DNA from: a virus
Reading direction: 5' to 3' (one strand)
IMG/VR virus record: IMGVR_UViG_3300011980_000002
Span: 159,033 to 223,032 of that record
DNA length: 64,000 nucleotides
Both the position numbers and the translations under genes were made by a program. Under the pieces are notes generated by a model, which was not told the origin of the DNA, did no database searches, and was given only the letters and a program-made list of their open reading frames with translations. Below, piece after piece: positions 2,845 to 62,030 of the stretch. The stretch's first letter is position 1. The number at the start of each line of letters is the position of its first letter.

Positions 2845-2880
2845 ATATATATTATTAATTTAGATATGTAAAATATATTA
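2845..2880 (+). promoter_or_regulatory. Early-class promoter-like motif (variant)
   Basis: ATATATATTATTAATTTAGATATGTAAAATATATTA shares TATTAATTT and TATGTAAAATATAT with the family. Confidence 0.35.
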
Positions 2881-2908
2881 TAGGAAAGGAAGTTATACTA
2901 AAAGAATT

Positions 2909-4522
2909 ATGAGTAGTAAAAAAATGAAACCACCAATAGTTTTGTGGAAACCTAAGGAAGAAGAGAAGATAATTACATATGATGGTAAAATCTTTATATG
3001 TAATTTTGATAAGGTATTATCTCCGGAATTAGTACCTTATAGAAATTTTATGATTAATAAATCCAGTTATGAAAAACAACTGGACCAGATAGTAGCTTAT
3101 ATTAATTTCTTCTTAAATTTTTATGATAAAGAACATGAATTAATATTAGGGTATCTTAAGTTAAAATTTGTTATAGATAAAGAAAGATTATTCCAAGTTG
3201 ACCCTAGTATGGATAATGAAGAGAAGAATAAAACCATAAATGGATTTATATCATTAATGCATAATATACTATTTGAAGATACTTCTGTAGCTAAGAATAT
3301 TAGTAAATTAGTAGAAGATAATTACATTGATGATATAGAAGGTACTAATAGTAAAGGGGATAAGAAAGAATATTTAGAGTCATTAGAATTTACCAATGCT
3401 CATGTTATGTTAATACTTAAAGTATCGTTTGCAATGAAAATAATAGCCCCAATTATGTTCCATTATTTTTATATAAATGGAATTAAGTTGGAGAAGAATT
3501 CAGATTATATCTATAGATTTTATAAACCATTATTTGGAGATATATTTGAAACACATGGAATTAATCTATTTAATAAATTATTTGTGTATGTGAAATCAAG
3601 AGTATTTGAATCCGGTAAGATTAATGCTGCAATATTTGATAAGAGAGAGATTATGGGTATTGATATATACTTAGTGCTTAGTATGTTTATTAAGAAAGTC
3701 GTAATCTCTGATAATATGGTTAAATATTCATTTCCAGAAACTTGGGATGAGAAAAATCATAAGTATAAAGAGAATATTGTAGGATTTAATAAGACTATAC
3801 TTAAATTACAACTTAATTATTTCATTAAAGAAGTACATGGTAAAAATTTAACCGAAGTATCTAATACTAAGAATACTGAAGGTTTATCAGGTGCTGATAA
3901 GATGGAAATGAATATTAAGAAGATGGATGAAGGTATGGGATTATTTGCAGAATTAAATGCAGAGAAAACCGTAGAATATATTAAGAGAGTTATAGATATT
4001 CCTGTAAGTAAATATGAAGTAGACTATATGATGGATCACTTTAAACCTAATGACATACAGATTAAATTAATCTATAGCTATTATAGTAATTACTTTGGTA
4101 ATTATAGAGATACTGCATTAGTTACAGGAAGAAATTTCTATACATTAGCATTATTACTTAAGAAGAAATTGTTATTAGATTTTGCTCATGATATAAACAA
4201 AGATAATTACAACCTGACCTTACCATATGTACTGACAGGTAATGTTGAAGGTAGGTTAAATTCAAGAATAATAAGAAATAATAAATACTTAAGTAAATTA
4301 GAAAATGATGACTATTATCAGAAATTACTCAATAATGAATATAAATTATTATTAGAGATAAATCCTGATGAAATTAAGAATATCATTAGTACAATGCTTA
4401 ATTTACAATTCTCATATGTTACTCCAGAGAATCCAGATTTATTAGGAGAAATAATAGAGACAGATGAAAATAAATTAGGTGCAGAATTATTATACTTTTT
4501 ATTTCATATGGAAAGGAACTAA
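2909..4522 (+). CDS. Hypothetical protein
   Basis: 537-aa ORF with SD GGAAAGGAAG upstream. An early-like promoter variant lies at 2845. No motif recognised. Confidence 0.6.
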   Translation: MSSKKMKPPIVLWKPKEEEKIITYDGKIFICNFDKVLSPELVPYRNFMINKSSYEKQLDQIVAYINFFLNFYDKEHELILGYLKLKFVIDKERLFQVDPSMDNEEKNKTINGFISLMHNILFEDTSVAKNISKLVEDNYIDDIEGTNSKGDKKEYLESLEFTNAHVMLILKVSFAMKIIAPIMFHYFYINGIKLEKNSDYIYRFYKPLFGDIFETHGINLFNKLFVYVKSRVFESGKINAAIFDKREIMGIDIYLVLSMFIKKVVISDNMVKYSFPETWDEKNHKYKENIVGFNKTILKLQLNYFIKEVHGKNLTEVSNTKNTEGLSGADKMEMNIKKMDEGMGLFAELNAEKTVEYIKRVIDIPVSKYEVDYMMDHFKPNDIQIKLIYSYYSNYFGNYRDTALVTGRNFYTLALLLKKKLLLDFAHDINKDNYNLTLPYVLTGNVEGRLNSRIIRNNKYLSKLENDDYYQKLLNNEYKLLLEINPDEIKNIISTMLNLQFSYVTPENPDLLGEIIETDENKLGAELLYFLFHMERN

Positions 4523-4524
4523 TT

Positions 4525-4887
4525 ATGTTAGGTAAGAAAAGAATTCTGAGTAGTGATACAATAATTTTTATAAATCTATGCACAATTAATGTACTATCAA
4601 GTCGTGATACAGAACGAATAGTAAAACTGAGAAAAGAAATAGAAGAATTTATTGAATATAATACCAATTATTATCATGAGTTGGAAAATTCACAAATATC
4701 TAATAAAGAAGAATTATCCAAAGAGCTTTCTATTAACATTGATAAATTGAAGTGTGTACTACATATGATAGAAAGTTCAAGTGGGAAAGTTAAATGTGAG
4801 TATATCAATCCTGATTTGAAAGGTTTTAAAAGTGATATATTCACAATTGACCAATTCCTGACGGATAATAGTACTATTATAAAATAA
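4525..4887 (+). CDS. Hypothetical protein
   Basis: 120-aa ORF starting 2 nt after the previous stop. A strong terminator lies at 4902. Confidence 0.5.
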   Translation: MLGKKRILSSDTIIFINLCTINVLSSRDTERIVKLRKEIEEFIEYNTNYYHELENSQISNKEELSKELSINIDKLKCVLHMIESSSGKVKCEYINPDLKGFKSDIFTIDQFLTDNSTIIK

Positions 4888-4901
4888 ATAAAATCTCATT
4901 A

Positions 4902-4944
4902 ATATAACCTATATACGGATTATCGTATATAGGTTATATTTTTT
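4902..4944 (+). terminator. Intrinsic terminator
   Basis: 16-bp perfect stem ATATAACCTATATACG / CGTATATAGGTTATAT followed by T5. Confidence 0.75.
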
Positions 4945-4960
4945 ATAATATCGAATTATC

Positions 4961-4992
4961 TATATAATATTAATTTGTAATAAAATAATATT
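4961..4992 (+). promoter_or_regulatory. Early-class promoter-like motif (class 2)
   Basis: TATATAATATTAATTTGTAATAAAATAATATT, 22 nt before ATG 5014. Follows terminator 4902. Confidence 0.6.
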
Positions 4993-5013
4993 ATTTAAAG
5001 GAGAAAAAGAAAT

Positions 5014-5634
5014 ATGAAAAAATTTAATTATGGTTTTGAAGATTTTTCATTCAGTGAGGACAAAGCCAATCATCAATCAGAAATAGAATTATTGATTAAA
5101 AAGCTTCGTGGGTTTAAATATGTTACAGCATATTTAAACGTTGGTATTAATATGTTATATAGAATAACGATACTTGAGGGATATTTGCTAAGATTTCTAA
5201 TTTTTACAGATAAAGGTGATTTTTACGATAGTATACAATATGCAATAAAAATGTGTAGAGATATAGCTGAATTACTCGTTAATAATTCAAACGTGTATAC
5301 CTATCATGGTTTTTATAATAAGAATAAGAGAATAAGCGATATTCTCTTTGAGAAAGTAGAACTTATTGATAGAAAAACCATTACAGAAGCACAATCAATA
5401 TTAGATATAGATGATAGGGATATGAGAGATTTTATCAATAGATTTCAATCGAGAGCTTTCATCTATATAGAGAGAATTGATGAGGGTAAACATATTATAG
5501 TACTATTGGATTCATTTTATTCATATATGTATTTAATTGAAAATATGGATAAGAAAGAAATTAACAATAGTTCATTTTCATTAGAAACAGCCAATTCAAT
5601 ATCAGTAGAAAATGAGGATGAGAATGACGATTAA
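5014..5634 (+). CDS. Tandem paralog family protein, member 1
   Basis: 206-aa ORF behind early motif 4961 and the fixed SD AAAGGAGAAAAAGAAATATG. Homologous to 5687..6334: MCRDIAELLVNNSNVYTYHGFYNKNKRISDILFEK matches IACEIADTIIDSVKFDSYYEFYKTHKKISDLLIEN, and both end NSIS..(E/D)-rich..NDD. Confidence 0.6.
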   Translation: MKKFNYGFEDFSFSEDKANHQSEIELLIKKLRGFKYVTAYLNVGINMLYRITILEGYLLRFLIFTDKGDFYDSIQYAIKMCRDIAELLVNNSNVYTYHGFYNKNKRISDILFEKVELIDRKTITEAQSILDIDDRDMRDFINRFQSRAFIYIERIDEGKHIIVLLDSFYSYMYLIENMDKKEINNSSFSLETANSISVENEDENDD

Positions 5635-5671
5635 AGTTGAATTATTTTTTAATAAAAATAATATTATTTAA
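5624..5671 (+). pseudogene. Relic 5' end of a duplicated gene (homologous to the start of 6324..6977)
   Basis: 5611-5655 AATGAGGATGAGAATGACGATTAAAGTTGAATTATTTTTTAATAAAAAT matches 6311-6355 GATGAGGAAGGTAATGATGATTAAAGTTGATTTATTTAATTATAAAACC. The first copy reads MTIKVELFFNKNNII then a stop. Confidence 0.6.
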
Positions 5672-5686
5672 AGGAGAATAAGAAAT

Positions 5687-6334
5687 ATGAAATTTACAAA
5701 AGAGACAGTTGATAGCTTTTTAAACGAAATTAATGGTAATTTAAAGAATATGATACCAATAGCTAATACTATGTACGATAAGTTAGAATCATACCACTAT
5801 CTATGGTTACATGGTGGTTATAGAAACTATGATGATTTACCATTTATTGTGGATTTTGCTGAGAAAATTGGTAGTATGTATGAAGCAGAATGTATGAATC
5901 CCAAAAGCAATATATACATATATGGAAGTCTGGAAAATGACATACTAGCTATTATGAGTATAGCTTGTGAAATTGCGGATACGATTATTGATAGTGTTAA
6001 ATTTGATAGTTATTATGAGTTTTATAAAACTCATAAAAAAATATCGGATTTATTAATAGAAAATTGTAATATTTTCTCACACCTAATAGATACTGATATT
6101 AATTTTGTAGCCAGTAAGTTTCATATGGAAACTGACGAATTATTAGAATTATTAGCAGATTTTAAGGAATTGTGTATAGTCAATATACAACCACATGGTA
6201 AAAAAAGTAAAATCTATTTTAAGTTAGGTACTAATTTTTACAAGTACGCATATTACATAGGTTATAGAAATGGTGAATTGTTAGAAACCCCTAATTCTAT
6301 TAGTATTCAAGATGAGGAAGGTAATGATGATTAA
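5687..6334 (+). CDS. Tandem paralog family protein, member 2
   Basis: 215-aa ORF with SD AAAGGAGAATAAGAAATATG. Clear paralog of 5014..5634. Confidence 0.6.
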   Translation: MKFTKETVDSFLNEINGNLKNMIPIANTMYDKLESYHYLWLHGGYRNYDDLPFIVDFAEKIGSMYEAECMNPKSNIYIYGSLENDILAIMSIACEIADTIIDSVKFDSYYEFYKTHKKISDLLIENCNIFSHLIDTDINFVASKFHMETDELLELLADFKELCIVNIQPHGKKSKIYFKLGTNFYKYAYYIGYRNGELLETPNSISIQDEEGNDD

Positions 6335-6977
6335 AGTTGATTTATTTAATTATAAAACCCCATTTGATTATATGGGTAAGAACTGGGCTGAAGAGTTAAC
6401 AAAAGAATTTGTAATTAGTCATTTAGGCACTATACTCGATTTTATAAATAATCTTAATTCTGATTATATCAATATTGTAGAGACAGTTGAGAAATTAATT
6501 GCTTCTAATAATAAATCGGTTATATTTGACTGGTGTGAAAAGAACACTAGACCAGTTTATATTATAAAAAGAATCTATATTTTATTCAATGAATATCATA
6601 ATAGTACTAAAGGGTATAGTATAGATTTGGATACTGTGAATATGTTTAAGAGACTGGAGTTATTAGTTGCACCTTATGATATAATTGATGCTTCATATCG
6701 ATTACAAATAGAAGTTTCTAAAGCATACAATATGTATTCCACAGATATGTGTGTCAAAGATATCATGGATAAAATGTATAAGAATGGTGAAATGGATAAA
6801 GATATCTTATATAGTAAATTAAAAGATAAGTGGTACGTATCCAATATAGATAAGGCTTTAGACAAATTATTAAGAGAGAGTAAATTTATTTCCAATATAG
6901 ATAATAAATTATGGGTAACATATATTGGAAATATTATTTACGAGGCTGTTTTATTAAAGAATAAGTCTGTAATTTAA
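6324..6977 (+). CDS. Hypothetical protein of similar size to neighbours, possibly a distant family member
   Basis: The ORF track starts at 6312. ATG 6324 or 6327 fits SD GAGGAAGG (6314-6321) better. Overlaps the previous stop in an ATGATGATTAA arrangement. Confidence 0.55.
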   Translation: MMIKVDLFNYKTPFDYMGKNWAEELTKEFVISHLGTILDFINNLNSDYINIVETVEKLIASNNKSVIFDWCEKNTRPVYIIKRIYILFNEYHNSTKGYSIDLDTVNMFKRLELLVAPYDIIDASYRLQIEVSKAYNMYSTDMCVKDIMDKMYKNGEMDKDILYSKLKDKWYVSNIDKALDKLLRESKFISNIDNKLWVTYIGNIIYEAVLLKNKSVI

Positions 6978-6991
6978 AGGAGAAAAGAAAT

Positions 6992-7654
6992 ATGAGCAAA
7001 GATATTCATTTTCCAACAGTTCCAGTATTTAAAGGTGGAATTAAAACCGAAGAAGATTTTAAAGTATTTAAAGATTTCACTCGTAAATTAAGAATTAACA
7101 AATCTAAGTATATTGATACTATGATAGATAAATTTATGTCTATTGTGGATAAGAAGTCATATTATGATTTTATAAACTATTTCAGAAAAGATATTATTAA
7201 AATTATGGATATTATAGAACATATAAACTTCCCTATATCCGGAATTCAATATAATATGAAGTATGTTGAATGTGATTTACCAATATTAAACATGTTTGTT
7301 AGAAAGTATGTAACATTACAAGATTCATCCAATAGAGTATTAGCTGGAGTCATATATGATAAAGAGAAAGATAATATATTGAAAATATATACTCTTTTAG
7401 AAAAATACTATTCTATGGATTTATTCCCAACAGTATCATCTTTATCAAAACATAAAAAAATCAAAGATGTGGTTATTACTAAAGATGAGTTCAATTCATT
7501 AAATAAATTGCTATTTGATTATGGGGTATTGGAATTAGAATTTGATAGTATCAAGTATTCTATGAGTGCTATTGGATTAGCTTTTTATGATTACATAATA
7601 CCTATTATATTTAGAAAAGATAACTATTCAACTTTAATGTCTAAATATCTATAA
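6992..7654 (+). CDS. Hypothetical protein of similar size to neighbours, possibly a distant family member
   Basis: 220-aa ORF behind the fixed SD AAAGGAGAAAAGAAATATG. Its C-terminal third has the same helix-rich pattern as the three upstream genes; this similarity is weak. Confidence 0.55.
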   Translation: MSKDIHFPTVPVFKGGIKTEEDFKVFKDFTRKLRINKSKYIDTMIDKFMSIVDKKSYYDFINYFRKDIIKIMDIIEHINFPISGIQYNMKYVECDLPILNMFVRKYVTLQDSSNRVLAGVIYDKEKDNILKIYTLLEKYYSMDLFPTVSSLSKHKKIKDVVITKDEFNSLNKLLFDYGVLELEFDSIKYSMSAIGLAFYDYIIPIIFRKDNYSTLMSKYL

Positions 7655-7668
7655 ACTAATCTTTAATT

Positions 7669-8721
7669 ATGATAGAGAATGTACAAAACTTCAAAGAAAG
7701 ATTTATAGAATTATTTATGTTAAGAGATGTCTGGAAACAGAAAGTATCTGATTCACAATATCGGACTAGATGTGTATATTGTGGAGATAGTAAGAAAGAT
7801 TTCAATACCGGACATCTCTATATTAAGTGTAATAAAGACGATAGGTCACCTATTGTCTATAATTGTTTTAAATGCACAGCATCTGGTCTAGCAGATGCTG
7901 ATTTTTTTAAATTGTTAGATTTAGATGATTTAATCTCAGATAATTCCTTTGATAAATTAAAGAATAATTTTAGTAAAGTAAATAATTCTCATAGAGTACA
8001 AGATTTTATTTATGAAAATTATTCATGTTTTAACAGTAATAAATATCTTTATAAATTAGACTATATAGAAAAAAGAATAGGAGTTAAATTTAATAATGAA
8101 ATGGTTAATAAATGTAAAGTAATCACATCTATTAAGGAATTTCTTAAATATAATAAAATTAAAGATATTACTGTGGATAAATATATATTGGATATATTAG
8201 ACAGAGATTATATTGGATTTTTATCATATGGGAATACACATATATTCTTAAGAGATATAACTAATACTCATAAATTATCGTGGGTTAAATATAAGATATA
8301 TAATAGTAATACTTTAGTAGTTTATAATATCAGTAATAGTATTAATGTATTAACCACAGAAGATATTACTATAAATATAAGTGAAGGTATAATAGATATT
8401 TTATCAATTGCTTATAATCTTAATAATAATAGAGATAATGTAATTAATTTTGCTAATGGTAGTAAATCTTATTTTAACTTAATCAATCATATAATTAAAT
8501 TAGGTTTAGTAGGAAATAATGTAACTTTAAATATCTATAGTGATAATGATAAGAAATTCAATAATGATAGTAATTATTATGATACTACCATTAATTACTA
8601 TAAAAAGGTATTTAGGTATTACAAAATACTATTTAAAGAAATTAATGTATATTATAACATACTGAGAAAAGATTGTGGTGAACGTATAGAAAATATATCT
8701 TTAAGTAAGCATAAAATATAA
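7669..8721 (+). CDS. DNA primase-like protein (Zn-ribbon + Toprim)
   Basis: N-terminal Cys4 ribbon CVYCGDSKKDFNTGHLYIKCNKDDRSPIVYNCFKC. Toprim-like INISEGIIDILS (compare DnaG EGYMDV) and a downstream acidic LNIYSDNDKK (DxD). Confidence 0.55.
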   Translation: MIENVQNFKERFIELFMLRDVWKQKVSDSQYRTRCVYCGDSKKDFNTGHLYIKCNKDDRSPIVYNCFKCTASGLADADFFKLLDLDDLISDNSFDKLKNNFSKVNNSHRVQDFIYENYSCFNSNKYLYKLDYIEKRIGVKFNNEMVNKCKVITSIKEFLKYNKIKDITVDKYILDILDRDYIGFLSYGNTHIFLRDITNTHKLSWVKYKIYNSNTLVVYNISNSINVLTTEDITINISEGIIDILSIAYNLNNNRDNVINFANGSKSYFNLINHIIKLGLVGNNVTLNIYSDNDKKFNNDSNYYDTTINYYKKVFRYYKILFKEINVYYNILRKDCGERIENISLSKHKI

Positions 8722-8739
8722 CTCTGAAAGGATTAATTT

Positions 8740-9084
8740 ATGAAAAGAATTAATAGTAAAAATTATGACATTATGACCAATGTATTCTTTATACATAAGG
8801 GTGTCCCATATAACGGTCGTATTGTGAACAACAAAGTAGATTCGTATTATATCGTGCATAAAATTACCATGTTAGATAAAGCGGTGGATACCGGTAAGGA
8901 AACATATATGGTAGATAGAAATTTAGTAGATGACAAGTGCCCGTTCAATTTACCAAAATACCCAACTATGGAAGATTTAGAATATATTAAATCAGTATAT
9001 GATCAATGTCTAACTGATAAATATGATATGGATAGTCTGGATTTTGAAAAGTTCTATAAAATGGTTGGAAATCATTTTGATTAA
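8740..9084 (+). CDS. Hypothetical protein
   Basis: 114-aa ORF with SD GAAAGGA. Followed by the hairpin at 9090. Confidence 0.5.
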   Translation: MKRINSKNYDIMTNVFFIHKGVPYNGRIVNNKVDSYYIVHKITMLDKAVDTGKETYMVDRNLVDDKCPFNLPKYPTMEDLEYIKSVYDQCLTDKYDMDSLDFEKFYKMVGNHFD

Positions 9085-9089
9085 ATAAG

Positions 9090-9129
9090 ATAATAGAGTA
9101 TATAGAAATCAATCTATATACTCTATTAT
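9090..9129 (+). terminator. Cassette hairpin (terminator-like, no T-run)
   Basis: 16-bp stem ATAATAGAGTATATAG / CTATATACTCTATTAT. Confidence 0.5.
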
Positions 9130-9161
9130 CTATGGTCCGTATTTCATATATATATATAGTA

Positions 9162-9194
9162 ATATACTATTTATATGTAATAAAATAAATATAT
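9162..9194 (+). promoter_or_regulatory. Early-class promoter-like motif (class 1)
   Basis: ATATACTATTTATATGTAATAAAATAAATATAT, with GTCCGTATTTC box upstream. Confidence 0.65.
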
Positions 9195-9210
9195 TAAAGG
9201 AGATATCATC

Positions 9211-9456
9211 ATGATGTCATTAGCAGAGTTAAATAGAATAACCAGTAAGTTTGATTTAGAGGCTTGTATGGCTATAGCCTCTGGAAGAAAAGAAACTATT
9301 GATTCTATCAAGGAAGAAATCAATACTCAACTTATATCATTTAATAACATGAAATCTGAAGCTGTTGAAGCTACAGATATTCACAACTTAGAATCTGCAA
9401 TTTATAAATTGCAGATTACATTAAAGGATATAGAAGGCTTTGGAATGTTATTCTAA
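9211..9456 (+). CDS. Small early-cassette protein, unknown function
   Basis: 81-aa ORF directly behind early motif 9162 and SD AAAGGAG. Flanked by hairpins at 9090 and 9431/9480. Confidence 0.55.
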   Translation: MMSLAELNRITSKFDLEACMAIASGRKETIDSIKEEINTQLISFNNMKSEAVEATDIHNLESAIYKLQITLKDIEGFGMLF

Positions 9457-9479
9457 GCCTTCTATATATATATTAATAA

Positions 9480-9516
9480 AAATAAATCTTAATTAATTTT
9501 AGGATTTATTTTTTTT
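9480..9516. terminator. Terminator between convergent genes
   Basis: AAATAAATC / GATTTATTT stem flanked by A-rich and T-rich runs. Confidence 0.5.
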
Positions 9517-12319
9517 ATATTAATAAATTATCTAAATCCAGTTTTATTGTTACTACTGTATTATCATGGAATTTCTTCATGTTAAGGTTTGTTAGAGTAG
9601 TTGCAATTTTAGATGATGATAATCCAACATTCTCTATTCCTAACTTATAGAATAATTGTCCCATACATCTACTACATAATTTTTTTCCAATACACATCAT
9701 TGGAGATCTCATTTTAACAGTTTTACCCATATAAGAATCCATATTTTTTTCATCTAATAGTATATGCTTACCATTACTACCAATGATATATCTATACATT
9801 ACAGATTTAGCTGTTCCTTTATTAATCTCATATGGTATATATCCTTTAGTACCACAATCACTTTCTGGGTCAGGATTTAACATCTCTGTTTGCATTGCTG
9901 CAAGTAACTCTTTTGATAGATATCCTGTATCAGCAGTAGATACCGATTTAGAATATGCACCAATAACATTAGAGTTAGCTGAAGCAGGTATATCTTTCTT
10001 AGCCATTCCATCCATTAGCGAATTAGTAATTATATCATAATTACCGGTTGCTGGATTCTTAACGACTCCTCTATACATAGCAATATTCTTTAAGTTATTC
10101 TTAACAGAACCTCTTGCTCCTGAGTCATATAAGTCCATACCAACATCACCTTTAAAGATTTCTTTAGTTTTATTTATCAATGCTTTCTCTATCTCTTCAG
10201 ATATTTCAACATCACCTTTCTCTAATCTATCTTTATATTTCTCTACTAATTCATTTTTTAACTTAGATACTTCAGGTGGAGTTTTAATTGTTGGTAATGT
10301 ATAAGAAGATGTTACAGTAGCATGCATCTTTAATCCAAACCAATCTCTATAGTCTATCCATCTATACATATCAGTTACGGTAATTCTATCATCCATTAAA
10401 GCTTTAGCTATAGTATCTTCTATTTTACCTTGTTTACCCTCAGTTACAGGTTCATTAATATATCCAATTATATCAGCGTAGTTATTTAACCATCTCTTAT
10501 ATAAACCGGTATTAAGTACATATCTACCTACAGTAGTTTCTATAGCTGTTTTAGTAGGGGATTTAGCTGCCGGTAATGTAAATTTATCGGTAGGTTTAAA
10601 CTTAGGAATACCATTAAGTTTTCTTGTGTTATCATCTTTAAGATTTGCAAACATCATATTCATAATATCGGCATTAAAATAATCTGGTGATTTTTCTAAT
10701 AACCAATCTATATCTGTTTTAGAAGCTGTTTTATCATCAGATGAAGGATTCTTAGTTAATGAATAGAAAGTCTGTACTGGTTCACTACCAACAACTTTCA
10801 TATTCTTCCCATCCATATTAAGAATATACTTCTTACTATTAACATACTTTTCCAATTCAGCATTTGCTTCTTGTGTCCATAATAACTTAATTGTCATTTG
10901 ATCACCATCATAGTCTCCACCGAGTCCTAATAGATAAGATGGTGAGAACTGTTGTGAGTCTATAAACATAGTACCAATATGGTCCATATCCGCATCAAAG
11001 TCTACAACAGGATACCATTTGTAAATAGTATTATTAGTTCTCATTATCTGTGTTTTAGTAGTAGATATAACTCTTACTTTACACATGAAAGAACCATATT
11101 GGTCGTTAAGAGGATATCTTGTACACATGGCATACTTATCTCTTACTGAATCCTCACAAGCCATATATAATAAATCCGTTACAGTCATATATCTGTTTGA
11201 TATTGTAGAATCTTCTTGATTTACATTGTTAAGAGTACTTCCAACAAATGTCATATACATCTTATTAGGACCTTCTACTGGTATTTCTATCTTATTAAAT
11301 CTCGACTCTGGATTCTTAATATAATTATTAATCATTCCATCTATATACTTATCATCAAAATATGCTTCCGGAGATATTAACTTTACAGGTTCAAATTCAC
11401 CTTTACTATTAATAAAAGATTTACTGTCTTTATTCTCAAATACCTCTTTCTTAAAGAAATTTTTTACCCAGTTAAGAACAAATGGATATGCTAATACACA
11501 TATCTGTGATATAGGTAATCCACAATAACCTAGACTTATCATTTCGTCATCCGGATTATTACTATGGTAATTTTTAGATGTGATGACAGTTCTTGTAGAG
11601 TTACATACGGATTTACCCATTAGGTATTTTCTTATCATACCATTTTTCTTTTCTATCTTAGTCTTAAAATATTCATATATTTCCATAATAGAGTTTTGAA
11701 TTATTTTATTACTAGCATGGAATTGGAAATTAAATCCATCTTCTTCTTTTACAGTGGATACATGTCTTATAATTCCGCTATATAAAGTATTTAACTCATT
11801 AGTAGTTCCACCACCTTTACCATCAGAGATAACATCTCTATATGATACCGGTATTACTACTAATTTATTCATGAATAGTATTTTCTTAGGTATTTTTAAG
11901 AAGTCTAATCTTTCCTGTCTTATTCCAATCGTAACATCATTATCTTCGTCAGTATCCCATTTAATCTTTTCCCAATTATTATATAAAAACTCTATACCAG
12001 TATCGGCATCCATATCTTCACTTGGGACTAATTTACCACTTTTATCTATCTTATAATAAGCTGAACCATCTATAATCTTATCTACATTTCTGAATATAGA
12101 TTTAACTGCTTTATATGCATTTGGGTGAAAAAAGTGATTATGTAAATCTATATAAGCCATTCTATTTTTTCTATCATATAATGATATACCAAATATCTCA
12201 TTAGATAATAATCCATCACTGTGAGGAATTCCACCTCTTTGGAAAATTACCGGATTAGATACTTCTTGTAATCTATTAATTTTAACAAACTCATCTATAT
12301 CTAATAAATCTAGTTTCAT
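9515..12319 (-). CDS. Multisubunit RNA polymerase beta-prime-like subunit, set B (N-terminal and central part)
   Basis: GLLSNEIFG and RMAYIDLHNHFFHPNAY match beta-prime GLFCARIFGP and RMGHIELAAPVAHIW. Catalytic loop variant GGDYDGDQMTIK (NADFDGDQM). MRSPMMCIGKKLCSRCMG is near the C-terminus. The protein ends just after GLSSSKIATTLTNLNMKKFH (compare IGEPGTQLTMRTFH). The N-terminal Zn ribbon is absent. Confidence 0.85.
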   Translation of the reverse strand: MKLDLLDIDEFVKINRLQEVSNPVIFQRGGIPHSDGLLSNEIFGISLYDRKNRMAYIDLHNHFFHPNAYKAVKSIFRNVDKIIDGSAYYKIDKSGKLVPSEDMDADTGIEFLYNNWEKIKWDTDEDNDVTIGIRQERLDFLKIPKKILFMNKLVVIPVSYRDVISDGKGGGTTNELNTLYSGIIRHVSTVKEEDGFNFQFHASNKIIQNSIMEIYEYFKTKIEKKNGMIRKYLMGKSVCNSTRTVITSKNYHSNNPDDEMISLGYCGLPISQICVLAYPFVLNWVKNFFKKEVFENKDSKSFINSKGEFEPVKLISPEAYFDDKYIDGMINNYIKNPESRFNKIEIPVEGPNKMYMTFVGSTLNNVNQEDSTISNRYMTVTDLLYMACEDSVRDKYAMCTRYPLNDQYGSFMCKVRVISTTKTQIMRTNNTIYKWYPVVDFDADMDHIGTMFIDSQQFSPSYLLGLGGDYDGDQMTIKLLWTQEANAELEKYVNSKKYILNMDGKNMKVVGSEPVQTFYSLTKNPSSDDKTASKTDIDWLLEKSPDYFNADIMNMMFANLKDDNTRKLNGIPKFKPTDKFTLPAAKSPTKTAIETTVGRYVLNTGLYKRWLNNYADIIGYINEPVTEGKQGKIEDTIAKALMDDRITVTDMYRWIDYRDWFGLKMHATVTSSYTLPTIKTPPEVSKLKNELVEKYKDRLEKGDVEISEEIEKALINKTKEIFKGDVGMDLYDSGARGSVKNNLKNIAMYRGVVKNPATGNYDIITNSLMDGMAKKDIPASANSNVIGAYSKSVSTADTGYLSKELLAAMQTEMLNPDPESDCGTKGYIPYEINKGTAKSVMYRYIIGSNGKHILLDEKNMDSYMGKTVKMRSPMMCIGKKLCSRCMGQLFYKLGIENVGLSSSKIATTLTNLNMKKFHDNTVVTIKLDLDNLLI

Positions 12320-14330: not shown

Positions 14331-14359
14331 ACCAGAATATAGATAATCTATATTCTGGT
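14331..14359 (-). terminator. Intrinsic terminator of 14378..15649
   Basis: ACCAGAATATAG / CTATATTCTGGT stem, T-rich on the minus strand. Confidence 0.6.
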
Positions 14360-14377
14360 ATTCTTTGTAGGCGATTT

Positions 14378-17594: not shown

Positions 17595-17627
17595 TATATA
17601 CTATTAACTTGTAACTGAAATATTATT
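17595..17627 (+). promoter_or_regulatory. Early-class promoter-like motif (diverged class 1)
   Basis: TATATACTATTAACTTGTAACTGAAATATTATT lies ahead of the 17654 operon, which contains the set A beta-prime C-terminal gene. Confidence 0.5.
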
Positions 17628-22275: not shown

Positions 22276-22297
22276 TTTTAGCTTTTACAAAATTAAG

Positions 22298-22339
22298 AAT
22301 AATAGATACTAGATTAATTTCTAGTATCTATTATTTTTT
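22298..22339 (+). terminator. Cassette terminator
   Basis: AATAATAGATACTAG / CTAGTATCTATTATT followed by a T-run. Confidence 0.75.
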
Positions 22340-22360
22340 ATCCGTAATTTCTCTTAATAT

Positions 22361-22393
22361 ATATATACTATTTACTTGTAAAATAAATATATT
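22361..22393 (+). promoter_or_regulatory. Early-class promoter-like motif (class 1)
   Basis: ATATATACTATTTACTTGTAAAATAAATATATT, with ATCCGTAATTTC box upstream. Confidence 0.65.
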
Positions 22394-22414: not shown

Positions 22415-22603
22415 ATGTCAGATATAGTAACTGTTATGAGAAAAAGAGAATTAGCAAAGGCTAGTGAGATTTTAAGAAGTTTGGATGAAAGAATTAGTAA
22501 GGACCTCGATGGTGGACATACACCTGAAAGGTATCATGAATGGCTCGATATTGTGGATTTGAAATATATCATAGAGAGTTTAGTAAAACTCGAAGAGTCA
22601 TAA
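22415..22603 (+). CDS. Small early-cassette protein, unknown function
   Basis: 62-aa ORF behind early motif 22361 and the fixed SD. Its own terminator lies at 22609. Confidence 0.55.
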   Translation: MSDIVTVMRKRELAKASEILRSLDERISKDLDGGHTPERYHEWLDIVDLKYIIESLVKLEES

Positions 22604-22608
22604 AAAAT

Positions 22609-22650
22609 AAAACCCTTATAGATATAATTTCTATAAGGGTTTTATTTTTT
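22609..22650. terminator. Bidirectional terminator
   Basis: AAAACCCTTATAG / CTATAAGGGTTTT with flanking A- and T-runs, between convergent genes. Confidence 0.75.
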
Positions 22651-39014: not shown

Positions 39015-39043
39015 TATATAATATTGATTTGTGATAGTATATG
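39015..39043 (+). promoter_or_regulatory. Orphan early-class promoter-like motif (no ORF behind it)
   Basis: TATATAATATTGATTTGTGATAGTATATG follows terminator 38958 and a TTTTACCGTTTTTTG box. No ORF of 60 aa or more and no SD+ATG lie in the next roughly 340 nt. Confidence 0.4.
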
Positions 39044-39384
39044 TGATATACATTTTTAATAAGTATGCATCATTTATTAATTTAAAAGATGGAATACATG
39101 AAATGTAAAAAGTTCATAAAAGAAAGCCTATTTCTTTATAAACTAATTCACAAATTTAAATTAAAAAGAAAGGAGACAGTTCGAAACTATTTCTATTAAT
39201 ATTTTATGAGGATATTATAGAGATAATTTCAAAATGTATCAAACTTACTTAACTCACCTATTCTATATTGATATTTAATATAAGTATGGGAATATTCCAT
39301 TGGGTTTGGTAGTTAGTCAAGTAAACAAATAGAAAGGGGATTTGCCACATTTTTAATAAAAATATGACAATATAATTTCTATAA

Positions 39385-40407: not shown

Positions 40408-40432
40408 TTAAAGTTACTTAATAAGAAGTAAG

Positions 40433-40474
40433 ATAAAGATACTGTATAATAAAAATACAGTATCTTTATTTTTT
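40433..40474 (+). terminator. Cassette terminator
   Basis: ATAAAGATACTGTAT / ATACAGTATCTTTAT followed by a T-run. Confidence 0.75.
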
Positions 40475-40496
40475 ATCCGTATTTCCTATATATACC

Positions 40497-40533
40497 GATA
40501 TACTATTTATGTGTAAGTAAAATAAATATATAT
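40497..40533 (+). promoter_or_regulatory. Early-class promoter-like motif (class 1)
   Basis: GATATACTATTTATGTGTAAGTAAAATAAATATATAT, with ATCCGTATTTCC box upstream. Confidence 0.65.
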
Positions 40534-40549: not shown

Positions 40550-40792
40550 ATGAAAAAGAATATTTATTCAATTTCTGGAACAATCCAGGAATCATATGAA
40601 GTCGCTTATGAGCTTGGCGACTTCGTCCAACTCGGAAGCTCAGATTACATAGTCGCTTCAGACTTCAGTGGCGACTATGCAGCAGCTGTTGCTTGGGGAA
40701 ACAGTTGCAACATCGGAGACCCCCAACCATGGGAGCTGGAGACCTTGAAAGAGGTCGACCCAGACTTCCACCAAAAATATATAGCCTCATAA
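40550..40792 (+). CDS. Small acidic early-cassette protein encoded in a GC-rich island
   Basis: 80-aa ORF behind early motif 40497 and the fixed SD, with its own terminator at 40779. About 53% G+C over 40611-40780 by hand count. The protein is strongly acidic. Confidence 0.55.
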   Translation: MKKNIYSISGTIQESYEVAYELGDFVQLGSSDYIVASDFSGDYAAAVAWGNSCNIGDPQPWELETLKEVDPDFHQKYIAS

Positions 40793-40811
40793 GGGGCTAT
40801 ATATTTTTTTG
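40779..40811 (+). terminator. Intrinsic terminator of the GC-island gene
   Basis: ATATAGCC / GGCTATAT followed by T7. Confidence 0.65.
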
Positions 40812-47161: not shown

Positions 47162-47190
47162 TATATAATATTAATTTGTAATAAAATAAT
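47162..47190 (+). promoter_or_regulatory. Early-class promoter-like motif (class 2)
   Basis: TATATAATATTAATTTGTAATAAAATAAT is identical over 29 nt to the copy at 4961. Confidence 0.6.
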
Positions 47191-48872: not shown

Positions 48873-48910
48873 AATAATAGATACTGGGTTAAATCTCAGT
48901 ATCTATTATT
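48873..48910 (+). terminator. Cassette hairpin
   Basis: AATAATAGATACTG.. / ..CAGTATCTATTATT. Same stem family as 22298 and 60024. Confidence 0.6.
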
Positions 48911-48936
48911 ATCCGTATTTCTTGTATATATATAGT

Positions 48937-48970
48937 AATATACTATTTATGTGTAATAAAATAAATATAT
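48937..48970 (+). promoter_or_regulatory. Early-class promoter-like motif (class 1)
   Basis: AATATACTATTTATGTGTAATAAAATAAATATAT, with ATCCGTATTTCT box upstream. Confidence 0.65.
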
Positions 48971-48990: not shown

Positions 48991-49140
48991 ATGTTAAACT
49001 TATCAACTATATCAAAGTCAGACGCGAAGTATGCTGAGGTTAAACTTAATCTTTCAATTATGGAGTTAGAGAATTCCATAAGAAAGATTGAAAGGGCTAC
49101 CAAGGTGGTGAAGGCATTAAATCCTTCACTAAAGAAATAA
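48991..49140 (+). CDS. Small basic early-cassette protein
   Basis: The track ORF starts at 48922, inside the promoter motif. ATG 48991 sits behind SD AAAGGAG, giving 49 aa. Terminator at 49147. Confidence 0.45.
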   Translation: MLNLSTISKSDAKYAEVKLNLSIMELENSIRKIERATKVVKALNPSLKK

Positions 49141-49146
49141 CAAAAT

Positions 49147-49187
49147 AAAACCCTGTAAGTAATTTATACAGGGTTTTATTTTTTTTT
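49147..49187 (+). terminator. Intrinsic terminator
   Basis: AAAACCCTGTA / TACAGGGTTTT followed by a T-run. Same stem as 60543 with the loop inverted. Confidence 0.8.
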
Positions 49188-49203
49188 AATTTTTTTACAT
49201 AGT

Positions 49204-49234
49204 CTATATATTATTAATTTGATAGTAACTATTT
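49204..49234 (+). promoter_or_regulatory. Early-class promoter-like motif (variant) ahead of the set A beta-prime N-terminal gene
   Basis: CTATATATTATTAATTTGATAGTAACTATTT resembles class 2. Confidence 0.35.
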
Positions 49235-50767: not shown

Positions 50768-50778
50768 AAATAAACAAA

Positions 50779-50819
50779 ATATAAGATATCTAATAGTCAT
50801 AGATATCTTATATTTTTTT
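50779..50819 (+). terminator. Cassette terminator
   Basis: ATATAAGATATCT / AGATATCTTATAT followed by T6. Confidence 0.75.
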
Positions 50820-50854
50820 ACCCGAAAAATCGTAATTTTCTCTATATGAATAAT

Positions 50855-50890
50855 GATATACTATTTAGGTGTAAATAGATAAATATTATT
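50855..50890 (+). promoter_or_regulatory. Early-class promoter-like motif (class 1)
   Basis: GATATACTATTTAGGTGTAAATAGATAAATATTATT, with CGTAATTTTC box upstream. Confidence 0.6.
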
Positions 50891-51382: not shown

Positions 51383-51448
51383 AATAAATCCATTTTAGAA
51401 TAGATAATTTAAAAAAATATATAGTCAAATAAAAAGGAGAAAAGAAAT

Positions 51449-51613: not shown

Positions 51614-51635
51614 TAAAGGTTTAGAGGTGATTAAT

Positions 51636-51935: not shown

Positions 51936-51943
51936 GAAAGAAG

Positions 51944-52150: not shown

Positions 52151-52156
52151 TGAAAG

Positions 52157-52209
52157 AAAAATAATAGATATAATTAGGACTGATCACCCTGATATATCTA
52201 TTATTTTTT
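52157..52209 (+). terminator. Cassette terminator
   Basis: AAAATAATAGATATA / TATATCTATTATTTT with a 20-nt loop. Confidence 0.6.
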
Positions 52210-52235
52210 ATATTCGTATTTTACCCATTATTATA

Positions 52236-52270
52236 AATATACTATTTATCTGTAAATAAAATAAATATAT
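52236..52270 (+). promoter_or_regulatory. Early-class promoter-like motif (class 1)
   Basis: AATATACTATTTATCTGTAAATAAAATAAATATAT, with ATTCGTATTTTA box upstream. Confidence 0.65.
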
Positions 52271-52273
52271 TGA

Positions 52274-52309
52274 AGGGTGGAGATGACATCAAGAGCCCAA
52301 GGAGTTAAT
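52274..52309 (+). promoter_or_regulatory. Conserved 5' leader element, copy A
   Basis: AGGGTGGAGATGACATCAAGAGCCCAAGGAGTTAAT lies between the early motif and ATG 52310. Confidence 0.45.
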
Positions 52310-52429
52310 ATGAAGAAAAGAAATAATAACATAGTTAAAGCACTAGTTAGTGGAGTAATTTTTGGAACGTTTGCGTTCCTCGTCTCTATTGTGAATAATA
52401 GAGACGATAAAAAGAAAGGGGGTGAATAA
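52310..52429 (+). CDS. Unlisted 39-aa membrane peptide (early cassette)
   Basis: MKKRNNNIVKALVSGVIFGTFAFLVSIVNNRDDKKKGGE. Lies behind early motif 52236, the conserved leader 52274-52309 and SD AAGGAG. Confidence 0.4.
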   Translation: MKKRNNNIVKALVSGVIFGTFAFLVSIVNNRDDKKKGGE

Positions 52430-52539
52430 TCCTCTTGAAAATTTATGGAAGGGGAAATTTCTTCCATTATATTACATCAAAGAAAGGGGGTGTAATATAA
52501 TGGAAGAAACTGCCCTCATGTTATAATTCTGTAATAAAT

Positions 52540-60023: not shown

Positions 60024-60064
60024 AATAATAGATACTGGGTTAATTCCTAGTATCTATTATTTTT
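60024..60064 (+). terminator. Cassette terminator
   Basis: AATAATAGATACT / AGTATCTATTATT followed by TTT. Confidence 0.7.
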
Positions 60065-60090
60065 ATCCGTATTTCATATATATATATATT

Positions 60091-60122
60091 GATATACTAT
60101 TTATGTGTAAAATAAATATATT
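60091..60122 (+). promoter_or_regulatory. Early-class promoter-like motif (class 1)
   Basis: GATATACTATTTATGTGTAAAATAAATATATT, with ATCCGTATTTCA box upstream. Confidence 0.65.
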
Positions 60123-60139
60123 TATGCTCATATATGAGC

Positions 60140-60177
60140 AGGGTGGAGATAACGTCAAGAGCCCAGAAGGAGTTTAT
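60140..60177 (+). promoter_or_regulatory. Conserved 5' leader element, copy B
   Basis: AGGGTGGAGATAACGTCAAGAGCCCAGAAGGAGTTTAT lies between the early motif and ATG 60178. Preceded by the hairpin TGCTCATATATGAGCA. Confidence 0.45.
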
Positions 60178-60537
60178 ATGTTAATAGGAAGAACTACATT
60201 TGCAACAGAGTTATTTGATACTATCTGTGAGAAGTATTTCGAGATAATTGAGGGTATTAAAGATGACCTCAACATCGAGAAGTCATCCAGAGATGTATCA
60301 GCGGAATTTACATTCCTGTATAGACCTTTAGATAAGACACTGGCATATATGCCAGTAAACGAGGATGGGATGTTTACAGAGTATATGTATTTCTACTACC
60401 CATCAATATCAGATACCTGTAGTCCATATATAGTATTTAAATTAGATATAGGTGGATTGGTTAGATTGTACATGATGAACTATGAGGAGTTCAAGAAAGG
60501 AGTTATACATGTAAATAGGCTTGATACTGATTTTTAA
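60178..60537 (+). CDS. Early-cassette protein, unknown function
   Basis: The track ORF begins at 60103, inside the promoter motif. ATG 60178 follows SD AAGGAG, giving 119 aa. The conserved leader 60140-60177 is in frame upstream, so a longer form cannot be excluded. Confidence 0.55.
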   Translation: MLIGRTTFATELFDTICEKYFEIIEGIKDDLNIEKSSRDVSAEFTFLYRPLDKTLAYMPVNEDGMFTEYMYFYYPSISDTCSPYIVFKLDIGGLVRLYMMNYEEFKKGVIHVNRLDTDF

Positions 60538-60542
60538 AAAAT

Positions 60543-60584
60543 AAAACCCTGTATAATTTACTTACAGGGTTTTATTTTTTTTTT
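60543..60584 (+). terminator. Intrinsic terminator
   Basis: AAAACCCTGTA / TACAGGGTTTT followed by a long T-run. Confidence 0.8.
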
Positions 60585-60597
60585 GTATATGCCCAGT

Positions 60598-60614: not shown

Positions 60615-60651
60615 TTAAAATATAAAGAAAGGTGAGTAATTTACTATAGTT

Positions 60652-61548
60652 ATGGATAGAGAAAATATAGCATTATTATACCTCGCCGAACAAACCAGTC
60701 CAGAAAATTATGAAATGAAGAATTTGAATATAATGGAAAGTATAGGTGCGTTTTTCGTTGAGTTTGAAGCTGTTCTTCATTCATTTGATGTTCTTAATAT
60801 AAATAAAAGAATTTATCAATTATTGAATGTTGAAGAGTGTTATAACAAATCTGATGAAATTCAATCCTATATAAGAAAGAATGGTTGGTTTGGTGAAATG
60901 GATCATCCTGGACAAGACTTTGAGAATATGCAATTAACTGCACAAAGAGTACAGAAGATATACATGCCAAATAGATCTCATAAGATTATGAATCCACTAT
61001 TTAATAGATCTACTAATCTAATGACTGCTAAGATACAAACTGCAAGTGGTACTGATGCAGGAGTTGGAATGGCAAGAGAGATTGTACAAGGATTAATACC
61101 TTCATTTAGTTGTAGGTCAGTTGCAAGAATGAATGTCCAGAATGGTAAACCTTTAGTATCTATGAGAAAGCTTATTACTTATGACTGGGTATTATATCCG
61201 TCTCATAAAGAAGCTACTATGATAGGTAAACCTACATTAAGAGTAGGACAAAAAGAAAAGCTATTATTAGAGTCAGCTAATACCATGTTAGGAAATGAAC
61301 CAATATTCAGAAAGAGATCTAAAGATGTTTGTATTGATATGAGTCAATTCCCAGACTTTACTGAATTCATAAGTGAGTTTGACCCTAATACTAATATCGT
61401 ACTAGAGAGTGTAGGATGTAGTTATAAGGATATTACTACATTTGATACCAACGGGAACATAGTAATTAGTACTGAAGGTAATAAGATATTTGTAAATACT
61501 AATATGGATACAAAAAAGAAAATAGAAGATTTTCTATCATCATTCTAA
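60652..61548 (+). CDS. Prohead core protease, T4 gp21-like
   Basis: NINKRIY...WFGEMDHPG and GLIPSFSCRSVA parallel T4 gp21 NRNKRLYP...ALGELNHP and GWIPGVSSRGLG, recalled from memory. AACA-N6-TA motif at 60598. Confidence 0.6.
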   Translation: MDRENIALLYLAEQTSPENYEMKNLNIMESIGAFFVEFEAVLHSFDVLNINKRIYQLLNVEECYNKSDEIQSYIRKNGWFGEMDHPGQDFENMQLTAQRVQKIYMPNRSHKIMNPLFNRSTNLMTAKIQTASGTDAGVGMAREIVQGLIPSFSCRSVARMNVQNGKPLVSMRKLITYDWVLYPSHKEATMIGKPTLRVGQKEKLLLESANTMLGNEPIFRKRSKDVCIDMSQFPDFTEFISEFDPNTNIVLESVGCSYKDITTFDTNGNIVISTEGNKIFVNTNMDTKKKIEDFLSSF

Positions 61549-61560
61549 GAAAAATTAATT

Positions 61561-61600
61561 AATAGAGTATACTCGTAATTGAGTATACTCTATTATTATT
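61561..61600. terminator. Bidirectional terminator
   Basis: AATAGAGTATACTC / GAGTATACTCTATT between convergent genes. Confidence 0.7.
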
Positions 61601-61606
61601 TGTAAA

Positions 61607-61798
61607 TTATAAATGCAATATATATATATATAATACATATAAAAGTATTGAAAATATAAGTGTTGAAAATATACATAGTGTTGTAAATGATTTATCAGTA
61701 TCATCATACTCAACTTCTAATATTATGATCGATAGTGATAGTATTGGTATTACAATAAATGGTATAATAATAAATGCTATAATATTAAGTATTATCAT
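61607..61798 (-). CDS. Small 2-TM membrane protein
   Basis: 63-aa hydrophobic ORF with SD AAAGGAG on the minus strand. Second gene of a two-gene minus-strand unit. Confidence 0.45.
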   Translation of the reverse strand: MIILNIIAFIIIPFIVIPILSLSIIILEVEYDDTDKSFTTLCIFSTLIFSILLYVLYIYILHL

Positions 61799-61819
61799 AT
61801 TTTTTATTTACTCCTTTCT

Positions 61820-61978
61820 TTATACACCTACTAATAATATTACCACTATTAATAGTATTATAGATATCAAACCAAGCATTGATGTAAATATCCTATTAAT
61901 ACCGATTACTATATCTAATAATATAGATACTAGTAGGATAAATATTAGTACTAACTTTATTAGTATCATAAAAATCAT
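61820..61978 (-). CDS. Unlisted 52-aa membrane protein
   Basis: MIFMILIKLVLIFILLVSILLDIVIGINRIFTSMLGLISIILLIVVILLVGV. Preceded on the minus strand by AAAGGAGAAAAAGAAGTATG and by early motif 62001-62030. Confidence 0.45.
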   Translation of the reverse strand: MIFMILIKLVLIFILLVSILLDIVIGINRIFTSMLGLISIILLIVVILLVGV

Positions 61979-62000
61979 ACTTCTTTTTCTCCTTTATTAA

Positions 62001-62030
62001 TATATTTTAATTACAAGTGAATATTATATA
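62001..62030 (-). promoter_or_regulatory. Early-class promoter-like motif (class 2) on the minus strand
   Basis: The minus strand reads TATATAATATTCACTTGTAATTAAAATATA. It is followed by AAAGGAGAAAAAGAAGTATG of the 52-aa ORF. Confidence 0.5.

Follow-up and report, generated by a model that had tools for sequence, protein, structure and literature searches.

We examined a window of 64,000 nucleotides of viral DNA (positions 159,033 to 223,032 of IMG/VR record IMGVR_UViG_3300011980_000002), in which an AT-rich motif recurs before gene starts and lies, at seven sites, within a repeated module of ~100 bp. We read the motif as an early promoter of an AR9-like jumbo phage, which would be recognized by the virion RNA polymerase (vRNAP) that such phages inject, and the modules as sites at which small genes are gained, lost, duplicated and swapped. 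The probability that we attach to this reading is about 75%. The positions of the features are collected in Table 1.

The preliminary description of this DNA had listed copies of a 30–35-nt motif ahead of start codons. All of these copies exist, although the positions given for them were 1–3 nt off. Alignment of the sites left a shared part of 18 nt, the core TATAnTATTnATnTGTAA, which is found in the window in seven perfect copies and in 12 copies with at most one mismatch, against 0.33 ± 0.60 expected from 100 dinucleotide shuffles, so that the motif is enriched over a composition-matched background; the exact 30-mers first described have two occurrences each within three mismatches. Two weaker variants of the core, at 2848 and 49207, both carry TATATTAT itself. 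All 14 copies of the core are intergenic and point in the same direction as the next open reading frame (ORF). G occupies core position 15, which lies 33–58 nt ahead of the ATG, in 13 of the 14 copies.

Relatives of the window phage (A) were found by protein searches and by pattern scans of metagenome and viral sequences; the scans gave more than 200 single matches, mostly by chance in unrelated contigs, and only contigs with BLAST similarity to the window were kept. Relative B is a 210-kb contig (IMGVR_UViG_3300008575_000010, ODJA01000004.1) that is ~80% identical, C is represented by fragments (91–95%) and F by contigs (91%), whilst D and E are more distant. The comparison covered parts of B, C and F. 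From the window and these relatives we collected 38 distinct motif copies, 22 with TATACT and 15 with TATAAT. The two classes distinguished previously are real, as TATACT copies nearly always have a box, (A)TCCGTATTTC, and an upstream (TA)n tract, and TATAAT copies have neither. An exception is 17597, a TATACT core without box or hairpin; this core is conserved between A and B within a spacer that is otherwise poorly alignable.

In AR9, 41 early start sites lie behind AAATATATATTAT-(6N)-G+1, as mapped by differential RNA sequencing and primer extension, and early transcription, which needs no new protein synthesis, was attributed to the injected vRNAP (Lavysh et al., 2017, PMC5312081). More generally, every jumbo phage that encodes an RNA polymerase (RNAP) has its own AT-rich early motif centered near −10 (review PMC7598289). 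When the G of TGTAA in our core is taken as +1, TATAnTAT falls at −14 to −7, in the same place and with the same 6-nt gap as the AR9 element TATATTAT; TATAnTAT-N6-G is present in 13 of the 14 copies. Transcription would thus start at the conserved G, six nt past TATAnTAT, and the resulting leader of ~33–58 nt would close with a standard ribosome-binding unit.

One copy can be matched to a mapped AR9 promoter by position as well as by sequence. The 13-mer AAATATATATTAT at 2843 reproduces, letter for letter, the early promoter annotated and mapped for AR9 g226, and it occupies the orthologous position: in AR9 the order is GroEL (g228), g227, the annotated early promoter, g226 and primase, and in the window a GroEL-like gene (190-1497) and the gene 2008-2841 are followed by AAATATATATTAT-TAATTT-A at 2843 and the gp226 homolog. 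The promoter at this site is also present in relative B and in the more distant relative E. Primase is encoded close behind gp226 in E and in AR9; in the window, five extra genes and a promoter stand between the two. In relative E (L163 5479-8587) the gp226 homolog appears as three ORFs, which may reflect an intron or frameshifts.

Four RNAP genes were identified in the window by Pfam, PHROG and tblastn searches, with identities of 25–37% to known jumbo-phage homologs. Gene 49277-50767 encodes an N-terminal β′ piece and gene 19081-21141 a C-terminal β′ piece, both matching the non-virion RNAP (nvRNAP) annotated in Staphylococcus jumbo phages and AR9. The product of 2909-4522 matches only gp226 of AR9/PBS1, the promoter-specificity subunit of the nvRNAP, and that of 9515-12319(−) matches vRNAP subunits. 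The phage therefore possesses a virion-packaged multisubunit vRNAP and a second nvRNAP, both made of split β/β′ homologs, together with a gp226/gp68-like subunit. The motif precedes early operons, including all three nvRNAP genes, and does not precede the vRNAP gene or genes for structural proteins. The vRNAP subunit encoded by 9515-12319(−) is a single 934-aa fusion. Its two halves align to separate sites in AR9 and in jumbo phages of Listeria and Staphylococcus, and Fusobacterium phages JD-Fnp carry the fusion too, at 28% identity from end to end.

GC content is 23–38% per 2-kb stretch of the window and ~26% across most of it, and the plus strand holds most genes. Besides those for RNAP there are genes for virion proteins, a head protease, an endolysin and a primase, and many ORFs of unknown function. 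A near-identity DNA search of a reference phage collection returned nothing similar to the window, and a tRNA scan of the window found none. By its gene content, the source is an uncultivated jumbo phage of ~26% GC with an AR9/PBS1-type transcription apparatus, and a new lineage within the AR9 / phiR1-37 / Staphylococcus-jumbo group.

The likeness to AR9 thus comprises two split multisubunit RNAPs, TATA(T)TAT at −14 to −7 with G+1 six nt on, a position ahead of early genes, those for the nvRNAP included, the same 13-mer at the gp226 site, and, as described below, a CGTAT(T/C) upstream box and a companion late motif. There are also differences. In the window most copies have C or A, not T, at position −10, the A-rich part at −19 to −15 of AR9 promoters is missing, and there is extra conservation at −6 to +4 (TnATnTGTAA) and in the leader. 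In contrast to AR9, most promoters here have the box, at variable (TA)n spacing, and the promoters sit inside repeated terminator–promoter–ribosome-site modules.

The upstream box (CCGTATTTC), an element CCGTATT(TC), lies at about −35 to −40 and is joined to the core by the variable (TA)n tract; in the window, CGTAT begins at −35 to −40. Within the set of 38 copies the box accompanies TATACT cores even where the hairpin is missing. Since the distance between box and core differs among copies, an ungapped profile smeared the box out, and direct measurement of the spacer solved this: in the window and its relatives it is 11, 13, 15 (8 copies), 17 (4 copies) or 19 nt, in steps of two nt as expected from slippage in (TA)n. 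The same element was then found in AR9, where CGTAT(T/C) stands at exactly −38 to −33 in 9 of the 39 early promoters listed in Table S2 of PMC5312081 (g047, g048, g069, g108, g120, g169, g190, g234 and g253), most of which read ACCGTATT. Across 100 kb of AR9, both strands, CCGTATT occurs just 8 times, two of them at −38 to −33. Several of the AR9 box promoters rank among the stronger ones by read height (Table S2, PMC5312081). The main text of that paper does not mention a box element, and a literature search for the string together with AR9 gave nothing relevant.

Because the same element lies at −38 to −33 in 9 of 39 mapped AR9 early promoters, the box is old. It is an ancestral promoter-associated element of one promoter subclass, common to AR9 and the window lineage, and it would be either a functional part of the promoter, such as a polymerase contact, or a factor site. 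A more speculative extension, which we consider possible but doubtful, is that the vRNAP or a co-delivered factor recognizes the box as a second element resembling a −35, so that the box defines an ancient immediate-early subclass, that (TA)n slippage tunes promoter strength, and that the modules form a plug-and-play system for accessory genes within and between jumbo phages.

The full module runs from a hairpin and T-run through the box, (TA)n and core to an A-rich leader and AAAGGAG. It is present at the seven places previously indicated (9163, 22364, 40499, 48939, 50857, 52238 and 60093) with all of its parts, two of the boxes (50857 and 52238) being degenerate. Of the 12 cores, 10 have a strong hairpin upstream (ΔG −17 to −25 kcal/mol, z −7 to −10), and the stem AATAATAGATACT is identical at 22364, 48939 and 60093. 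Conservation reaches into the transcribed leader (GTAATAAAATAAATATAT), and the ribosome-site unit AAGGAGAAAA(A)GAAATATG (18–19 nt, n = 11) was found only in motif-driven operons. Early genes use the ribosome site AAAGGAGAAAAAGAAATATG, whilst genes with the late motif use GAAAGGA.

Six of these promoters had been described as each driving a single small ORF with its own terminator. The six ORFs exist, and a hairpin with T-run follows five of them; the hairpin behind the ORF at 52310 lacks a T-run. The upstream hairpin and T-run would end the preceding transcription unit and the second standard hairpin would end the cargo unit, so that, with hairpin terminators on both sides, each small ORF would be an insulated early gene. 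Three of the cargo terminators (22602-22650, 49142-49182 and 60536-60580) are near-identical members of a second family, AAAATAAAACCCTGTA…TACAGGGTTTTATTTTTT, which ends unrelated cargo ORFs; with A-tracts on one side and T-tracts on the other, they may act in both directions. At 52458-52509, 3′ of the 39-aa cargo ORF, is a 21-bp perfect stem without a T-run, inside which are a GGGGG Shine-Dalgarno-like tract and an ATG; instead of terminating transcription, this hairpin could control translation.

Just 5′ of the Shine-Dalgarno site of unrelated cargo ORFs there is also a leader element, GG(G/C)(T)GGAGATrAyrTCAAGAGCCyA (GGGTGGAGAT..AAGAGCCC), with copies in the window (52272-52300 and 60138-60166), in L005 (3888 and 5890), in L037 (5718) and in L242 (~5960). 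In three copies it is preceded by a hairpin, the sequence of which covaries (GCTCATATATGAGC, GCTACAAATTGTAGC, GCTATATTAAATATAGC). A consensus fold of the element gave seven weak pairs and one compensatory change, from which no structure is claimed, and it has no Rfam match. Searches of Rfam found no match for the whole window at gathering thresholds, nor for the leader region 60060-60200 at E ≤ 10.

The hairpins were considered as promoters in their own right. The N4 vRNAP promoter is a 5–7 bp hairpin with a 3-nt loop, with the start just downstream. The stems here are 13–21 bp with T-runs, lie at least 45 nt 5′ of the predicted start and are absent at 17597 and 47164, and the RNAP is multisubunit, not T7-like; an N4-type hairpin promoter was therefore rejected.

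The gene content of the related phages changes at the modules, at the leader/ribosome-site units and at the terminators. Over the ~59 kb aligned between A and B, all eight net insertions or deletions (indels) of at least 100 bp start at a motif copy (Table 1), and the next-largest gap is 31 bp. At 22364 both breaks coincide precisely with the end of a T-run, that of the upstream hairpin on one side and that of the cargo terminator on the other. At 40499, 60093 and 9163 the hairpin, the box and a terminator remnant are still present in B, which indicates deletion between TA-rich tracts. The leader and ribosome-site unit is directly repeated on either side of the gene 5014-5634 and of the genes 47211-47992.

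Individual loci differ in state among the relatives. Locus 60093 holds one cargo in A and F (the F allele being 71%-identical), another in C and none in B; in C, the same hairpin, box and core are followed by a different leader, a different 67-aa ORF and a terminator of the 49142 type. Behind the core at 47164, two genes (47211-47597 and 47600-47992) follow in A, only the second of them in C and neither in B. In relative B a 54-aa membrane-protein gene is present twice, first at the site orthologous to window 51449 and again behind the 48939 module, and the two copies differ at four residues. Relative F holds the 40550 and 60178 cargos at the same loci; the identity of the cargo DNA is 83% and 77%, respectively, as compared with 94–98% in the flanking DNA.

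These comparisons support the earlier proposal that the modules act as recombination handles for swapping cargo, with eight of eight large indels, one clean replacement and one intragenomic duplication. They also show that the cassettes did not enter this genome recently, as the 91%-identical relatives keep the same loci and the 80% relative shows remnants of deletion. The mechanism that we infer is recombination, whether homologous or guided by microhomology, at modules, leaders and terminators that recur along the genome; recombination or slippage among the repeats would delete, duplicate or exchange the genes between them.

The cargo proteins are lineage-restricted ORFans that diverge faster than their flanks. 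None of the cargo ORFs had a significant family in PHROG or Pfam, and for the two cargos searched against a large protein collection the only matches were a few proteins on contigs of related phages. A protein identical to the 60178-60537 cargo is encoded on a 223-kb contig. The 40550 cargo has 45% GC against 27.2 ± 3.3% for other genes. That the cargos serve in host takeover or counter-defense is a conjecture.

Alternatively, host RNAP could read the motif as a strong σA/σ70-type promoter of the kind found at the early genes of T4-like phages, with TATAAT or TATACT serving as the −10 element. Core positions 1–6 are indeed TATAAT/TATACT, and the downstream genes have strong Shine-Dalgarno sites. 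We nevertheless consider host recognition quite unlikely, given that no TTGACA-like hexamer is conserved at a spacing of 16–18 nt (best matches mostly 1–3/6), that a TG extension is missing, that conservation continues for 12 nt past the hexamer, to TGTAA, and that the homology of the promoters to those of AR9 extends to sequence, spacing and genomic position, the AR9 promoters being active without host RNAP or new protein synthesis. A scan of the window with the σ70 consensus gave 179 sites against 178 expected and was uninformative because the DNA is AT-rich. The modules could instead be selfish miniature mobile repeats which spread by themselves, their promoter activity being incidental. 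Such elements would account for the near-identity of hairpin stems at non-orthologous loci, which termination as such does not call for, and the modules do coincide with indels. This is very improbable, as the modules keep a constant orientation and a constant distance to the start codon, the core and box are common to AR9 promoters with mapped start sites, and box-less copies and AR9-type variants serve the essential nvRNAP genes; moreover, the junctions show neither terminal inverted repeats nor target-site duplications, and no transposase or homing-endonuclease cargo was found among the ORFs searched against Pfam and PHROG.

It is also conceivable that the motif is mainly an operator for a phage-encoded shut-off repressor or activator, the promoter being a shorter element inside it and the box and the +1 to +15 leader being regulator sites. 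This would fit the conservation into the leader (GTAATAAAATAAATATAT), the flexibly spaced box and the boxes without cores in B. We judge it unlikely: no candidate regulator was identified, and the AR9 box, fixed at −38 to −33, fits a contact of the polymerase or an initiation factor at least as well. An operator would in any case be compatible with early promoters read by the vRNAP, adding only a layer to them. That the motif is such a promoter, as the preliminary description had proposed, remains the probable explanation, in view of the AR9 sequence and spacing, the orthologous gp226 site, the placement before nvRNAP genes and the lack of a −35 element.

Several observations weigh against this explanation or parts of it. 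The start site and the polymerase of the window phage are assigned by analogy with AR9, to whose RNAP subunits those of the window are just 27–37% identical, and TATAAT/TATACT within the core leaves room for weak use by host RNAP. Box spacing differs by as much as 8 nt between copies, more than is usual in a rigid two-part promoter, and a 41-kb sample of Listeria phage LPJP1 has AR9-type cores but no box. At three loci of B (40499, 60093 and 9163) the box survives without a core, beside the hairpin, so that it might be a terminator-side element or the site of a separate factor. As to gene turnover, the recombination mechanism is deduced from its end products, at several junctions there is only a short TA- or T-rich microhomology and not long module homology, and polarity (loss against gain) rests on four lineages.

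Among known systems, the PeSLs of T4-type phages are composites of ~100 bp, comprising a stem-loop, an early promoter and a Shine-Dalgarno site, which lie by ORFans and at indels and leave remnants (Arbiol et al., 2010, PMC2839356; Comeau et al., 2014, PMC4122927). Their promoter is σ70-like (−35, 17 nt, −10), and mini-circles are excised when neighboring cassettes recombine. The cassettes of the window are alike in that they join an intergenic stem-loop terminator, an early promoter, a Shine-Dalgarno site and the start codon within ~100 bp, stand before small ORFans, coincide with indels and replacements between close relatives, and leave degraded stem-loop and upstream-element remnants beside deletions. 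However, the promoter here is of phage vRNAP type and not σ70-like, the carrier is an AR9-like and not a T4-like phage, and the whole stem-loop precedes the promoter. Further junctions are provided by a second, standard terminator at the 3′ end and by the recurring leader/ribosome-site unit of 18–40 nt. Because the σ70-like promoter is absent and the phage is unrelated, we place these cassettes outside the PeSL family. In the literature searched, PeSLs are described only for T4-like phages, and one jumbo-phage review merely cites a PeSL paper.

The cassettes can also be compared to morons. Morons of lambdoid phages are promoter–gene–terminator units between conserved genes. The units of the window are likewise autonomous, with their own promoter and terminator, atypical composition (45% GC in one cargo) and variable presence. 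They differ from morons, which use host promoters, are typically expressed from the prophage and have no shared standard flanks, in that their flanks are standard and virus-specific. The combination seen here is that of jumbo-phage vRNAP early promoters with T4 PeSL-type shuffling cassettes, each of which is known by itself.

A companion late-type motif, AAAACAnnnnnnTAA, lies 50–67 nt before the starts of late-type genes and matches the AR9 late consensus AACA-(6N)-TA. The pattern occurs seven times in the window, against 3.07 expected, and six of the seven occurrences are upstream of late-type genes (Table 1).

Table 1. Promoter cores, modules, cargo units, late-type motifs and A/B indels along the window. 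A, window phage; B, C, E and F, relatives.
Feature	Position	Strand	Context
AR9-type variant AAATATATATTAT-TAATTT-A(G)	2843..2865	+	Before gp226-like nvRNAP subunit gene 2909-4522; kept in B and E
Box-less TATAAT core	4963..4980	+	Predicted to drive operon 5014-9084, including primase; hairpin 4901-4940 upstream
Variable first operon gene, 206 aa	5014..5634	+	Flanked by ~40-nt direct repeats of leader and ribosome site (~4980, ~5650); 5019-5641 absent in B
Class-1 module	9079..9180	+	Hairpin 9088-9131, box 9136-9145, (TA)n, core 9163-9180
Cargo ORF 81 aa (9211-9456), terminator 9474-9517	9211..9517	+	9129-9511 absent in B
Late-type motif AAAACAnnnnnnTAA	12374-12388	−	Before vRNAP gene
Late-type motif AAAACAnnnnnnTAA	12409-12423	+	Before 12465 gene
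Core without box or hairpin	17597..17614	+	Predicted to drive 17654-22275, including nvRNAP β′ C-terminal gene 19081-21141; core kept in B
Class-1 module	22295..22381	+	Hairpin 22295-22338, box 22341-22351, core 22364-22381
Cargo ORF 62 aa (22415..22603), terminator 22602-22650	22415..22650	+	22339-22642 absent in B
Late-type motif AAAACAnnnnnnTAA	23603-23617	+	Before giant ORF (probable giant virion protein)
Core 39017-39034 and ~350 nt without conserved ORF	39017..39384	+	Best-conserved segment of region
Class-1 module	40432..40516	+	Hairpin 40432-40470, box 40476-40485, core 40499-40516
Cargo ORF 80 aa, 45% GC, terminator 40773-40808	40550..40808	+	40484-40774 absent in B (deleted; box and terminator remnant kept); retained in F
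Late-type motif AAAACAnnnnnnTAA	41683-41697	+	Before virion protein gene
Box-less core	47164..47181	+	Gene number behind varies between A, B and C; 47203-47941 absent in B
Class-1 module	48873..48956	+	Hairpin 48873-48910, box 48912-48921, core 48939-48956
Cargo ORF 49 aa, terminator 49142-49182	48991..49182	+	In B, duplicated 54-aa membrane-protein gene between module and ORF; 162 bp extra in B at 48998
AR9-type variant TATATATTAT-TAATTT-G	49202..49224	+	Before nvRNAP β′ N-terminal gene 49277-50767
Module with degenerate box	50776..50874	+	Hairpin 50776-50816, CGTAATTTTC 50831-50840, core 50857-50874; predicted to drive 50912-52150
Class-1 module	52156..52255	+	Hairpin 52156-52209, TTCGTATTTTAC ~52213-52224, core 52238-52255
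Leader element GGGTGGAGATGACATCAAGAGCCC, then 39-aa cargo ORF 52310-52429	52272..52429	+	52270-52447 absent in B, module retained
Late-type motif AAAACAnnnnnnTAA	59019-59033	+	Before 59068 gene
Class-1 module	60024..60110	+	Hairpin 60024-60061, box 60066-60075, (TA)n, core 60093-60110
Structured leader (hairpin and GGGTGGAGATAACGTCAAGAGCCC), cargo 119 aa (60178-60537), terminator 60536-60580	60111..60580	+	60087-60588 absent in B
Late-type motif AAAACAnnnnnnTAA	60600-60614	+	Before protease gene
Box-less core	62011..62028	−	Predicted to drive 52-aa membrane-protein ORF 61978..61820; conserved in B

Some further stretches of the window were characterized. The segment 39017-39384 is 96% identical to F; a 36-aa ORF within it is frameshifted in B, and 5′ of its core no alignment of A with B can be made. 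The segment is a candidate for an early non-coding RNA or for a long leader with a regulatory role. The ORF 23663-35989 (4108 aa), with a C39-like peptidase domain, a VgrG3-C (lysozyme-like) domain and a GC content of 33–38% against ~26% elsewhere, has the late-type motif upstream and is probably a giant virion or ejection protein. Between convergent genes at 13709-14378 lie 670 bp without an ORF of at least 35 aa, and the A/B alignment breaks down at 14003-14305.

The authors of the AR9 study noted that specific promoter recognition by β/β′-like vRNAP subunits alone, with no σ-like factor, would be unprecedented (PMC5312081). The box at about −38 to −33 offers a concrete, mutable target for asking how jumbo-phage vRNAPs find their promoters. 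The core, the late motif AACA-N6-TA and the early ribosome-site unit let temporal classes of genes be predicted in an uncultivated lineage. The cassettes extend the PeSL principle, that of regulatory cassettes as recombination handles, beyond T4-like phages and host-type promoters, and turnover at the modules helps to explain the turnover of the small early ORFans of jumbo phages, the class usually searched for anti-defense and host-takeover genes.

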